A DNA stretch of 64,000 bases from an uncultured Candidatus Binatia bacterium (GTDB taxonomy: Bacteria > Desulfobacterota > Binatia > UBA9968 > JAJDTQ01), in contig OZ243916.1 of the NCBI GenBank assembly GCA_965213675.1, forward strand, positions 672,001-736,000, in the 5' to 3' direction. The notes under the pieces were generated by a model. It saw nothing but the letters and a program-made list of their open reading frames with translations. It did not search any database and was not told where the DNA came from. The position numbers and the translations under genes were made by a program. Shown one piece after another: positions 7,474 through 10,364 of the stretch (positions are counted from its first letter, which is position 1; every line of letters begins with the position of its first letter).

Positions 7474-7567
7474 GGGTTTCACCGGGGTGTCGGATTCTGG
7501 TCTCTGCGGGCTCCGCCCCTCGTTGCTAATGGAGATTATATACGAAAGTGACCAAGCGGCGTTGCCA

Positions 7568-7768
7568 TTAGGCAATTCCGAACAGCGCCAACGCTGCATA
7601 GCCGAGACCGCCAATCACAGCCGCTACCCAGCAAACCGTCAATACCAGCAGCGCAATCGCTCTCCGCTGTAGCGGGACTAGAAATAGCCTGACGCACTTG
7701 GCCAGCGTGTATTGGAGCGCGCCGAACAGGGCTATGAGCACCAGAGCCCCACCGATCCACTCCACCAC
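7568..7768 (-). CDS. Small hydrophobic (about 2-TM) hypothetical protein, cassette passenger
   Basis: 66-aa ORF with two hydrophobic stretches; GTG start directly after the TAG of the upstream micro-ORF; ends 13 bp from the left TIR. Confidence 0.45.
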   Translation of the reverse strand: MVEWIGGALVLIALFGALQYTLAKCVRLFLVPLQRRAIALLVLTVCWVAAVIGGLGYAALALFGIA

Positions 7769-7936
7769 CTAACCGCCCGCTGGCTTCGGCTGCCGCTTGA
7801 GATAGTCCCATTCGTCATCGCGCTTCGGAGGCGTCGCCAGAATCGCCCGCATGATGTTTTCCGGCGAGTCCGGGATGGGGTCCGGCCACTCCTTCTCGAC
7901 GGGGCGGCCGCGCGGCCGTTTGGGTTCATCTTGCAT
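7769..7936 (-). CDS. 55-aa micro-protein with AT-hook-like KRPRGRP motif, cassette passenger
   Basis: Manual translation MQDEPKRPRGRPVEKEWPDPIPDSPENIMRAILATPPKRDDEWDYLKRQPKPAGG*; GGAG SD upstream; below the ORF-track size cut-off. Confidence 0.7.
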   Translation of the reverse strand: MQDEPKRPRGRPVEKEWPDPIPDSPENIMRAILATPPKRDDEWDYLKRQPKPAGG

Positions 7937-7988
7937 CACGTATCTCCGTTTGCGGCGATGCTCGGCAAGTGTGCCTCACCATATCAGA

Positions 7989-8029
7989 GGGACGCCCCGA
8001 AGGGGAGAAACGGGACCTCCGGGGCGCCC
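7989..8029 (-). terminator. GC-rich hairpin just downstream of the lipoprotein gene (possible terminator or processing stem)
   Basis: Inverted repeat gggacgccccgaagg / cctccggggcgccc; weak U-tract. Confidence 0.35.
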
Positions 8030-8034
8030 AACGG

Positions 8035-9378
8035 CTATCGGCTTGCGCCGAATGCCGCTGTCAAGTCGGAACGCTCCAAGGTTCCAGAAACGCCTTCATG
8101 GCTGCTGCCGTAGAAGCGGCCGTTCACGGTGCCAGCATCCCCGCCAGTGCTGCGCAAATAGTTCCCGCCAACCGTGATTGTGTAGCCGAGAGAGCCGGTG
8201 TTCCACTGAAGGCCGGTCCCAAGCACGCCCGGCCCCGATCCGGCGGCCCAGGACTGCAACTCGGTGAAGTCCCCGCGCCCGTCCATGGTGGCAAGATCGA
8301 CGGCGATACCGGCCTTGCCGGCAACCGGGTATAGCTCCGGCGTGAAACCCAGCAATTCACCGTTCCATGTCGCCGTTCCCCGGAGCGCGCGGTTGTCCGC
8401 AAGCACCGTCGCCGGGTCGCTGCCGTCCGTCCAAGGGACGCTAAGCCCGTTACGGTGGCGGACGCCCCAAGACATGCCGTAGAGAGTGTCAGAAAGCGTG
8501 ACTGCCTCCGTCTCCCACGGGCCGAGATTTTCCGCCGTCAAGTCTTCCGGTTGCAGCGCCGCCGCGCCAAGGCGCGTGAAAATCTTTCCCGCTGCGGCAA
8601 TGGCGGCAATATCAATCGGCCCAAGCTGCGTCACATTCCGCTTTGCTCGCGGCACATTCGCGCCAAGGAAGGAATCCGGGTATTTGTCGAGGTCTGCATG
8701 GCCAGTGGAACCTATCGCGTGTAGAAGCTCGTGAACCATGGTAAACATGGTGGAACGGTCGGCGGGAGAAAGATCGTTCAGCATATATATGCGGGCGTAT
8801 TTTCTGCCCGCTCTCGACCTCTCACCATCTTCGGTTACGGAATAGCGGTATCTTGCATACCCGTGGAATGCGGTCACATCATCGTCAGGATCGTGGGTTT
8901 CCCAATCTTCATGCGGAGCAAAATCAACGAATATCTGGCCGTCCGGCACCTCGGCCCACGGGGCCAGCGCCGGCGCGTCGGGGCCGATGCGGATATGGCG
9001 CTGATAGGGCAGTGCGCGGTTCACCATGGCGACGCCGTGCAGGATCATCGCGCGTTGATGATCGTCCGTCCCTTCCGCTATGCGCAGGGTTGCAGGCTCC
9101 CGGAAGACGGATAAGCCTGGACGGCTGTGGCTGTATTCCTCGCCACTCGCCGAAGGCCACGGCCCGCCGCTCGCAAAGACGCCCAGATAATCCAAGACTT
9201 CCGCAGCCGTCGGGCCGTCTGTTTCTGTGCCATAGCGGGCCGGATCGCCTTGCGGACGGGCTGGCGGGTCCATGCGCGGCGGCGGGTCCATCATCGTTTG
9301 CGGCCCCGATCCGCTTCCGCCTCCGCCGCAGGCGGCAAGCATGGACATGACGGTGGCGAGAATGGCGGCTATGCGCAT
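8035..9378 (-). CDS. Predicted surface lipoprotein with zincin-type HExxH motif and C-terminal TbpB-like beta-barrel
   Basis: Lipobox MLAAC then GGGGSGSG/Pro-rich linker; HELLHAIGSTGH; C-terminus ATWNGELLG...GTVNGRFYGSSHEGVSGTL...AAFGASR; GGAG SD. Confidence 0.75.
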   Translation of the reverse strand: MRIAAILATVMSMLAACGGGGSGSGPQTMMDPPPRMDPPARPQGDPARYGTETDGPTAAEVLDYLGVFASGGPWPSASGEEYSHSRPGLSVFREPATLRIAEGTDDHQRAMILHGVAMVNRALPYQRHIRIGPDAPALAPWAEVPDGQIFVDFAPHEDWETHDPDDDVTAFHGYARYRYSVTEDGERSRAGRKYARIYMLNDLSPADRSTMFTMVHELLHAIGSTGHADLDKYPDSFLGANVPRAKRNVTQLGPIDIAAIAAAGKIFTRLGAAALQPEDLTAENLGPWETEAVTLSDTLYGMSWGVRHRNGLSVPWTDGSDPATVLADNRALRGTATWNGELLGFTPELYPVAGKAGIAVDLATMDGRGDFTELQSWAAGSGPGVLGTGLQWNTGSLGYTITVGGNYLRSTGGDAGTVNGRFYGSSHEGVSGTLERSDLTAAFGASR

Positions 9379-9647
9379 GTCGGTTCTCCGGTTTCGACGC
9401 AGACCCGACGGGTTGCCGCGCCGGTCGCCAAACAGTCATCGGTGCATGAGACTCCCGCGCTGTCCCGTGAACGGTCTTCTATAGCGCAGGCGGCCCGACA
9501 TAGGCCGCTTGCACCGATCTGTTTGGCGTGAAGGAAGTCTCCGCTTGCGCAGACAGGCGTGTCAAGCGGAGAGGATACCGACCCGAGCGTCGGGATCACC
9601 ACCACGACCTAACCTCCCGCTGGTCACTTTCGTATATAAGCCCCTTG

Positions 9648-10364
9648 CTAATGGTCCCGCAGCAGCTTGCCGTACCCGTTGATCTTGTCGTTCACTCCGG
9701 TCCGGCGCAGGGTTTCCCACAGGATGGCCTGTATGGCGATGACCACGTTGACGCCGAGCTCCCGCTCCAGGGGTTCGATGATTTCGATGATGCCCCAGTG
9801 TGGCGCGGGGATGTAGATGGTGTCGGCCTCGGGGTGCTCGCGGTAGAGGGCCTCGGCCAGGGCCTTGACCTCGTCCTGGGAGATGGTGGCGAGGTCGGCG
9901 ACGGTTTTGCGGGCGCCCTTGAACCCCAGCAGCTCGAAGCCGTAGTGGGTGACGTATTCGGCGTGGAAGCCCTCGGGGTCGGTGAAGGGGTGGATGAGCA
10001 CGAGCTTGTGGGCGTCCACGGCGCGCAGCGCGTTCACTTGCGCGGTGATGCTGGAGGTCACCGGCACGCCGATCTCCTCTTCGGTCTTGCGCAGGGTCTC
10101 CGCAAGCCCTTCATAGCCCAGGGAGAGGTTCAGCGGGACACCGCCGAAGACCATGATGTCGACTCCGGCCTTGCCCATGGCCCGGGCGGCCTCCAGGGTC
10201 ATTTCGACGCTGCGAGTCGTTTCCTCCTCGGTGAGCTGCTTGATGGCCAGGGTGGTCAGGACCAGCGTGACGCCCTCCGGCGCCATCTTGTAGAACTCGT
10301 AGGGGAAGGTCTCCGTCAGATAGGGAGGGGACGTGTATCCGATGCGGGCGCGGTATCCGTACAT
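9648..10364 (-). CDS. Asp/Glu racemase / maleate isomerase-fold protein lacking the canonical cysteines
   Basis: MYGYRARIGY..., GVPVTSS, LERELGVNVV...QAILW; Cys positions read FGG and IPAPH; GAGGAGG SD. Confidence 0.8.
   Translation of the reverse strand: MYGYRARIGYTSPPYLTETFPYEFYKMAPEGVTLVLTTLAIKQLTEEETTRSVEMTLEAARAMGKAGVDIMVFGGVPLNLSLGYEGLAETLRKTEEEIGVPVTSSITAQVNALRAVDAHKLVLIHPFTDPEGFHAEYVTHYGFELLGFKGARKTVADLATISQDEVKALAEALYREHPEADTIYIPAPHWGIIEIIEPLERELGVNVVIAIQAILWETLRRTGVNDKINGYGKLLRDH

Follow-up and report, generated by a model that had tools for sequence, protein, structure and literature searches.

A probable transposase-less IS1595-family cassette carrying the gene for a predicted Slam-exported, metzincin-like lipoprotein in an uncultured Candidatus Binatia bacterium

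The insertion sequences (IS) of the IS1595 family, with their passenger forms and transposase-less cassettes, were reportedly surveyed by Siguier, Gagnevin and Chandler (Res Microbiol, 2009), and mobile insertion cassettes, namely MIC231 of Bacillus cereus, are said to have been described by De Palmenaer et al. in 2004. MIC231 carries a gene for a D-stereospecific endopeptidase, and a peptidase passenger thus has a precedent among such cassettes. Passenger-carrying 'transporter IS' forms are described for IS1595, and the concepts of passenger and transposase-less cassette treated as established, in the passages of PMC3129680 and PMC3281130 that deal with them. Here we analyze a 64,000-nucleotide stretch of an uncultured Candidatus Binatia bacterium (assembly GCA_965213675.1, contig OZ243916.1, positions 672,001 to 736,000; hereafter the window), in which a 2.1-kb segment at 7531-9644 carries a lipoprotein gene between terminal inverted repeats (TIRs). 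We consider it quite probable that this segment is a non-autonomous IS1595 derivative, that is, a mobile insertion cassette, inserted by a transposase supplied in trans and encoding a Slam-exported, metzincin-like lipoprotein.

The left TIR, GGAGATTATATACGAAAGTGACCA, lies at 7531-7554 on the plus strand and its partner at 9621-9644 on the minus strand, both being 24 nt long and agreeing at 22 of 24 positions (92% complementary). A perfect 8-bp target site duplication, TTGCTAAT, is present at 7523-7530, where it abuts the left repeat, and again at 9645-9652, so that the repeats and the duplication proposed in a first-pass annotation of this DNA are both confirmed. A 19-mer common to the two repeats occurs exactly twice in the window, once on each strand, and none of 100 dinucleotide shuffles yielded two or more matches. 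Beyond these two places, neither the 19-mer with up to three mismatches nor a looser pattern was found in the 4.53-Mb, 21-contig assembly. The right copy of the duplication includes the CTA at 9648-9650, which on the minus strand is the TAG stop codon of the right flanking host gene, encoding an Amdase/Asp-Glu-racemase-like protein (9648-10364, minus strand; Pfam Amdase, 3.6e-19). Orthologues of this gene in two congeners finish at the same residue, and the gene is therefore intact, as the first-pass annotation had held. No open reading frame (ORF) of the cassette matched a transposase family in Pfam, in agreement with the earlier claim that no transposase lies inside, and tblastn with three cognate transposases gave no match in the window. 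The cassette is a derivative of the IS1595 family without a PF12762/PF12760 transposase, and so is not an autonomous IS. On the perfect duplication and near-perfect repeats, the insertion may be recent, as had been suggested.

An exact scan for the 19-mer in one genome per species returned 15 loci in 11 genome records, and a second scan, of JGI metagenome contigs, nine more loci on nine contigs; the repeat is hence not unique to this place. The titles of the genome records name Latescibacteria, Thalassobaculaceae, Binatia, Rhodospirillales, Rhodobacterales, Flavobacteriaceae and, in five cases, 'Alphaproteobacteria', and a viral contig collection gave no exact match. The search for sister elements and for an autonomous IS1595 transposase was successful. 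One locus (L031) presents two exact 19-nt cores 3.96 kb apart, flanked by ATTTTTTA, and encodes a 356-aa transposase with the PF12762 domain (3.1e-34) and the IS1595 zinc ribbon PF12760 (3.9e-12). A Thalassobaculaceae chromosome harbors three 2.09-kb copies with the identical core (L016, L020 and L021), of which L020 is flanked by GAAATTCG, and their 324-aa IS1595-type transposase is intact in L021. Three further loci (L070, L075 and L078) represent the same insertion, with the duplication ATACTTTA and a transposase gene that tblastn aligned as two overlapping pieces. Compared with annotated plasmid-borne IS1595 transposases, the cognate enzymes reach no more than 42% identity. The attribution to the IS1595 family, which the first-pass annotation had guessed from the length of the duplication, is supported at the sequence level by this identical core, which bounds elements with IS1595 transposases and 8-bp duplications.

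The two ends of the cassette can also be oriented by these relatives. The left TIR is the end distant from the transposase gene in the autonomous elements, on the side of a small gene (orf56) discussed below, and its inner bases (GTGACCAAG...) are similar to those at the orf56 side of L031, L021 and L046. The right TIR is the end at which the autonomous relatives carry the transposase gene, and here the inner bases (GTGACCAGCGGG...) agree with L031 at its transposase side. With up to three mismatches allowed, many further paired variant ends were found in the same genomes, at spacings from approximately 0.23 to 5.7 kb. Perfect, AT-rich 8-bp duplications flank six of these variant-end elements (L030, ATTAAAAA; L032, AAATAGAT; L034, TTCGAAAT; L036, AAAGGAAA; L022, CAAATTAG; L024, TTTAATTA); across the wider family, eleven elements besides the cassette have such duplications. 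No matching duplication was found for six pairs (L016, L021, L033, L037, L038 and L076), and the single ends in L046-L049, L037 and L071-L074 had no second end or matching 8-mer within the fetched stretches. Several variant-end pairs in two genomes lie only about 0.23-0.40 kb apart (G044, C1:3287137-3287536 and 3288457-3288856; G047, C1:1065629-1065873, 2092078-2092322 and 2941243-2941487), and are probably miniature derivatives of the same IS1595 sub-family, akin to miniature inverted-repeat transposable elements.

The site of insertion was compared across the genus with a 4-kb query spanning the locus, searched in 40 relatives, 24 of them of the same genus. The left flanking host gene, encoding the ATPase of an oligopeptide-type ABC transporter (6357-7313, plus strand; Pfam ABC_tran, 1.2e-32, and oligo_HPY, 2.4e-18), is syntenic in the congeners. 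This gene and the Amdase-like gene match the relatives at 80-90% identity, and the Amdase-like orthologues, at 84-90% nucleotide identity, adjoin the ABC gene in the congeners. Among the same-genus genomes for which both matches were listed on a single contig, most have only about 8-430 bp from the ABC gene to the Amdase-like gene closest to it (40 bp in G018, 37 bp in G022 and 8 bp in G012). Three of them (G003, G004 and G015) possess an additional, more diverged Amdase-like copy, located between the best-matching one and the ABC gene. Larger gaps occur in G013 (2.3 kb) and G021 (7.6 kb), and G016 and G008 have the two genes on separate contigs. None of the matches listed for the 40 relatives covers the interior of the cassette at this locus, the sole interior match being a 378-nt segment with 68% identity elsewhere in G003. 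The flanking genes thus adjoin each other in the congeners and the lipoprotein is absent from the site, with no listed instance of it standing at this locus without TIRs. These relatives are other species and do not preserve TTGCTAAT exactly, and the evidence is one of synteny and not a true empty-site allele. Judging from this synteny, the segment appears to be an insertion at a site that lacks the lipoprotein in the congeners.

At the same intergenic spot, G013 carries a different, 2.3-kb insert (G013:C1; L079:1252-2996) that encodes an AbiEi-like antitoxin (PF09407, 1.7e-4) and an AbiEii toxin (PF08843, 4.4e-40) and whose ends are not IS1595-like. Within the genus, the space between these two convergent genes seems to serve accessory genes as a landing place. 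In the window, a 31-nt imperfect inverted repeat (7394-7468; 77%) also lies in the native DNA that separates the cassette from the ABC-ATPase gene, and may be the terminator of the ABC operon or a repeat element.

The cargo gene (8035-9378, minus strand) had no close relative among the genomes of the host lineage that were searched. Two paralogues of its family are encoded in the host genome, with 41% (partial) and 33% identity, and the best full-length match in the genus, among 27 other genomes, is 40-42% identical. None of 122 other genomes of the order yielded a homologue at E ≤ 1e-80; no close homologue was detected in a 400-genome sample of the phylum in which only four candidates per genome were scored, and ten repeat-bearing genomes (G041-G050) yielded none above 39% identity. 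Database proteins, all unnamed, reach identities of 85, 80, 74, 74 and 65%, and a cluster look-up of the 55-85% identical proteins returned one 'hypothetical protein' of an Alphaproteobacteria bacterium. Since the best match in the genus stands at about 42% and that in the databases at 85%, the cargo was acquired horizontally, from outside the order. The G+C content of the cassette (0.53-0.67 in 300-nt windows) is near that of the host.

The first-pass annotation had described the contents of the segment as a 447-aa lipoprotein and two micro-ORFs, all on the minus strand; the lipoprotein and the strand stand, but three small ORFs are present. Two of these lie on the side of the left TIR. The first, orf66 (7568-7768, minus strand), encodes a hydrophobic protein of 66 aa with two predicted membrane helices (identified by eye); an ORF at the corresponding place in L046/L027 is 77% identical to it in amino acids, with dN and dS (nonsynonymous and synonymous substitution rates) of 0.155 and 1.378, that is, a ratio of about 0.11. 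The second, orf56 (7769-7939, minus strand), encodes a 56-aa protein with an AT-hook-like PKRPRGRP motif; we take the conserved N-terminal PKRPRGRPVEK to resemble the AT-hook core. In tblastn searches, orf56 matched at 57-73% identity ORFs adjoining one end in L016, L020, L021, L023, L031, L022, L036, L017, L027/L046 and L070-L078. Its 43 database matches (42-66 aa; 59-100% BLASTP identity) comprise the window's own protein and 42 others at 59-86%, all unnamed or 'hypothetical', and residues G10, P12 and P36 are invariant in an alignment of orf56 (A2). Neither small protein belongs to a Pfam or NCBIfam family, and for orf56 the ESM Atlas returned only 'hypothetical protein' clusters, with no informative fused form (one match, of 127 aa). 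Given its matches at element ends and its low pairwise dN/dS (0.05-0.34), orf56 is a real gene of the transposon backbone, and both orf56 and orf66 are backbone genes conserved in the transposon lineage and evolving under purifying selection.

The arrangement of the parent element can be read from a decayed relative, L046, in which the repeat is followed by orf66, by orf56 with two in-frame stops, by a small lipoprotein ORF and by a 70-aa C-terminal transposase fragment. This indicates a parent order of end, transposase, (cargo), orf56, (orf66) and end, and in the window the lipoprotein unit occupies the position of the transposase. The third small ORF, of 78 aa (9369-9605, minus strand), falls largely in the region upstream of the cargo gene (9379-9620, minus strand), and no homologue of it was found in the genome or among the fetched loci. 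Public-run data (four runs of one study, with at most three samples, possibly the source of the assembly, and searched as contigs only, which drop rare variants) contained a contig that matches the cargo upstream region apart from a 40-nt gap. The gap falls inside the 78-aa ORF (joint 9434->9475) and its length is not a multiple of three; the ORF is probably not coding and is read here as the upstream region of the cargo.

Other relatives of the cassette were present in the same runs. At higher depth than the window's organism, they contained a sister end whose repeat is separated from orf56 by 34 other bases instead of by orf66, and, also at higher depth, a variant of 8170-8532, in the region encoding the lipoprotein barrel, with approximately 9% differences. 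Together with the contig matching the upstream region, this means that the community contains both elements related to the cassette and a close relative of its cargo. Within the cassette itself, a 30-nt direct repeat (25 of 30 matches) links 7754-7783, which spans the stop of orf56 and the start of orf66, with 9594-9623, just inside the right TIR and before the 78-aa ORF. On the minus strand both copies read ...CCAGCGGG.GGTTAGGT.GTGG..., with a Shine-Dalgarno-like GGAGG or GGCGG followed by GTG, and the repeat could be a retained translation-start context, or chance.

The cargo protein begins with MRIAAILATVMSMLAAC-GGGGSGSG, in which a lipobox ending in LAAC17 (MLAAC17, read by eye) precedes a flexible Gly/Ser linker; at least 90% of 55 aligned sequences share C17. 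The linker is followed by a metzincin-like domain (residues ~77-268) and by a C-terminal eight-stranded barrel of the TbpB/NHBA type (residues ~294-447). No Pfam family matched the protein, and a PDB sequence profile search gave only marginal matches to NHBA and collagenase (solved metzincins, E 0.3-0.4). The AlphaFold2 model has a mean predicted local distance difference test (pLDDT) score of 88.8 and a predicted template modeling (pTM) score of 0.86, with pLDDT 91-98 in the barrel region. Foldseek searches of the PDB returned, for the C-terminal part, NHBA first (E 1.8e-08), followed by fHbp, TbpB, HpuA, HphA and PmSLP. In a second structure search, independent of Foldseek, residues 294-447 aligned to the NHBA C-domain with Z 15.1 (root-mean-square deviation, rmsd, 2.1; 134 aligned residues), and residues ~77-268 to MMP-9 (Z 12.8, rmsd 2.8, 149 aligned), MMP-2 (12.2) and MMP-12 (11.7); the range for MMP-9, -2, -12 and -20 was 11.0-12.8, and serralysin (11.3), snapalysin (10.4) and astacin (10.2) also matched. 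Residues H216, E217, H220 and H227 (HELLHAIGSTGH) are invariant in the 55-sequence alignment. The zinc-peptidase-like lipoprotein of the first-pass annotation is thus borne out by the lipobox and by the predicted zinc-metallopeptidase-like domain.

A word-indexed search with the cargo returned 308 proteins at E ≤ 0.001, the sole named one being a 'transferrin-binding protein-like solute binding protein'. The cargo hence belongs to an unnamed protein family, with at least 308 database members, in which a metzincin-like domain is joined to a Slam-substrate barrel. Just past the stop codon of the cargo gene, a hairpin with a 14-bp stem (7990-8029, minus strand; minimum free energy -44.7 kcal/mol for 7935-8040 on the minus strand, z = -2.1) is the probable 3' end of the cargo transcription unit; no T-run follows, and the hairpin is a putative terminator only. 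Transcription of the cargo by read-through from the upstream Amdase-like gene is possible, because the cassette genes share its direction.

Substrates of Slam are defined by a lipobox and an eight-stranded barrel, and the Slam gene is adjacent in approximately 52% of cases, according to the passages on these proteins in Hooda et al. 2017 (PMC5449769). The host genome presents two PF04575 Slam matches (87 and 84 bits; cut-off 22), at C1:2872208-2873077 and C2:8388-9257, which are 99.4% identical over 483 aa. C2 is an 11.9-kb contig and may be a duplicate or strain variant of the C1 region rather than a second locus. With its modeled barrel, the cargo would most likely be exported by Slam as a surface lipoprotein. 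Among the best 8 of 64 papers matched in a literature search, none combined 'metzincin' with 'surface lipoprotein' or 'TbpB'.

The passengers of the sister elements, as identified with Pfam, are of a different kind. L031 carries, with its transposase, an EcoRI-like methyltransferase and a GmrSD/HNH nuclease, L036 a C5 methyltransferase and L038 a ResIII helicase. Four elements without a transposase carry an N6/N4 methyltransferase-HNH fusion (L034), an MT-A70 methyltransferase (L022, 1.1 kb), an AAA/STAND-like ATPase (L033) and an SNase-like nuclease (L076), and the cargo of L030 and L072 consists of unknowns. In L032 (547-3139, genome G047), the variant ends and the duplication AAATAGAT enclose an IS66-family transposase (PF03050, 4.5e-32), not an IS1595 one, representing either a nested insertion or an IS as passenger. 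The cargo of the sister elements examined is mostly DNA methyltransferases and nucleases, lipoprotein cargo being present only in the window, and the window passenger is atypical for this group. The proposal of a vehicle that spreads cell-surface protease or host-interaction genes accordingly finds no support as a general property of the family, the lipoprotein cassette having been seen once.

A partial parallel exists in G013, where a 491-aa member of the lipoprotein family, 36% identical to the cargo, lies between a 326-aa IS1595 transposase gene and an end reading GGGAATTATATAGC... (GGGAATTATATA...). This locus (L082:1905-5634; G013:C1:1028404-1032133) forms a low-G+C island in which the lipoprotein gene is convergent with the transposase gene, and no second (left) end or duplication was found there. 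In the host assembly, contig C20 holds two complete passenger-bearing IS1595 elements, one (C20:30122-33617; duplication TAACTTTA) carrying, besides a D12-class methyltransferase, an ORF similar to orf56, and another (C20:958-3913; duplication ATTGTTTT) with an N6/N4 methyltransferase. The host's own IS1595 copies were considered as partners of the cassette and rejected, their ends failing to match its repeat, with up to 8 substitutions in 24.

Several observations weigh against a mobile cassette that delivers a Slam-exported surface peptidase. With regard to mobility, the host assembly contains no cognate transposase; tblastn located IS1595 transposases only on contigs C20, C16 and C21, 46-59% identical to the cognate ones. 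What the ends of both complete C20 elements have in common with the cassette family is limited to the outer GGGAATTATA, and C20 itself (56% G+C, against 65.7% for the chromosome; assembly contamination 8%) may be a plasmid or a binning contaminant. Each end of the cassette deviates at one of the five outermost bases from the GGGGA common to the family, differences that could impair mobility. No second copy of the cassette with the same cargo was found, and contigs of the public runs bridge both junctions (7103-8143 and 8170-10312) with the occupied site only; no joint skipping the cassette, as expected of an empty site, was present in these four runs of one study, from whose contigs rare variants are dropped. 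With regard to expression and export, a promoter scan of the cassette returned no sigma-70-like site, neither host Slam gene adjoins the cassette, and the match of residues 332-447 to NCBIfam NF041636 (slam_lipo) scores 20.7 bits (E 4.1e-4), below the cut-off of 80. Furthermore, the canonical metzincin zinc motif is HExxHxxGxxH, and in the HExxHxxGxxxH of the cargo the third His falls one residue beyond it. The candidate Met-turn column (residue 238, located by its DSxM pattern) holds Leu in the cargo, with M in 39 and L in 14 of the 55 sequences.

The last two points bear on the function of the cargo. It is conceivable, though we think it doubtful, that the element is as described but that its product is no active protease, being instead a binding or scavenging lipoprotein whose metzincin-like domain serves as the variable 'handle' before the barrel. 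Such a role would be in line with the non-canonical spacing of the motif, with the replacement of the Met-turn methionine by Leu in the cargo's sub-clade, and with the known Slam substrates TbpB, HpuA, fHbp, NHBA, HphA and PmSLP, which figure as binding proteins in the relevant passages of PMC5449769 and in the titles of their structures. On the other hand, the three His and the Glu of the putative site are invariant over 55 sequences down to 41% identity, as expected of a working zinc site, and argue against this reading.

A second rival concerns the history of the element. An autonomous transporter IS, with both transposase and passenger, could have inserted here and subsequently lost its transposase by deletion in place, the unit never having moved without it. 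Relatives that combine a transposase with passengers are common (L031, L036 and the two C20 elements), the related lipoprotein of G013 has on one side an IS1595 transposase gene that looks intact and on the other a GGGAATTATATA... end, and no sister copy of the transposase-less lipoprotein form was found, all of which would agree with this scenario. We nevertheless judge it improbable, as the cassette holds no transposase remnant, whereas the decayed L046 retains its 70-aa C-terminal fragment. In addition, the transposase-less L034 and L022 carry intact 8-bp duplications, so such units transpose. That the repeats and the duplication arose by chance, around a lipoprotein native to the lineage, has next to no probability: despite the two family paralogues of the host and the host-like G+C content, we regard it as refuted by the shuffled sequences, by the same core bounding IS1595 elements in 11 genome records and nine metagenome contigs, and by congeners that lack the gene at this site while its nearest homologues lie outside the order.

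The preferred reading, a cassette mobilized in trans, can be set out as a series of steps. The cassette has kept both 24-bp ends of its parent together with orf56 and orf66, and a complete foreign lipoprotein gene stands where the parent has its transposase gene. A DDE transposase of the IS1595 type, acting in trans, would have cut the AT-rich TTGCTAAT with an 8-bp stagger at the 3' end of the Amdase-like gene. The insertion lies between two convergent genes, so that nothing was broken. The cargo would then be acylated at Cys17 and cross the outer membrane via its C-terminal barrel, using one of the Slam translocons of the host, and its metzincin-like zinc peptidase domain would be displayed on the cell surface. 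Of this series, the movement in trans of a unit lacking a transposase, the Slam-dependent export, the activity as a peptidase and the expression by read-through are inferred, whereas the ends, the duplication, the lack of a transposase, the autonomous relatives elsewhere, the absence from this site in congeners, the fold and motifs of the cargo and the Slam genes of the host are shown.

A broader proposal, which we advance as speculative and rather unlikely, is that an IS1595 sub-lineage, recognizable by the repeat family GGGRA-TTATATACGAAAGTGACCA, acts as a cross-phylum gene shuttle, with orf56 as a DNA-binding cofactor not described so far, and that it delivered a Slam-ready surface metzincin. 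The orf56 product would then aid recognition by the transposase of AT-rich ends or AT-rich targets, and such a role would explain its retention even in transposase-less cassettes. Were this true, a recipient with a Slam translocon would gain a new extracellular proteolytic activity in a single transposition step.

The locus suggests that transposase-less IS1595 cassettes can carry more than their usual small genes for defence or DNA modification. Here a complete gene is transported, for what would be a two-domain surface enzyme requiring a dedicated export machine, and the host already has that machine. The repeat family is common to uncultured bacteria with record titles from several phyla, and its backbone includes a small gene with an AT-hook-like motif; we know of no description, for IS1595 lineages, of such a conserved gene of 50-60 aa, with an RGRP motif and located beside one end. 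These results do not change the view of how such elements work, and their value resides in a documented example and in the leads provided by orf56, by mobilization in trans and by the Slam export of an enzyme.

Compared with IS1595-family IS, the cassette shares short TIRs beginning with GG, an 8-bp target duplication and passengers between the ends, but it has no transposase and its repeat sub-lineage was not matched to a named IS. Like MIC231, it has IS ends, no transposase, a passenger gene and a presumed mobilization in trans. MIC231 derives from IS231, of the IS4 family, in Firmicutes, whereas the parent of the cassette belongs to the IS1595 family, its host is a diderm of the Binatia type and its passenger encodes a surface lipoprotein. 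With the metzincins (matrixins, serralysins, astacins and snapalysin) the cargo shares the predicted catalytic-domain fold and the invariant HExxH and third His, and it differs from them in the displacement of that His by one residue, in the Leu of the Met-turn column and in its marginal sequence similarity. The Slam-dependent surface lipoproteins TbpB, LbpB, HpuA, fHbp, NHBA, HphA and PmSLP, as presented in the relevant passages of PMC5449769, resemble the cargo in their lipobox, Gly/Ser linker, variable N-terminal domain and C-terminal eight-stranded barrel. Unlike in these substrates, the N-terminal domain of the cargo is metzincin-like, with an HExxH motif, and not a ligand-binding handle, and its gene lies away from the Slam gene, within a transposon cassette. 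Elements of this kind are hence already known, and what is particular to this locus is the combination of a Slam-type barrel with a metzincin-like domain as passenger, the retained backbone genes, the multi-phylum repeat and the Binatia-type host.

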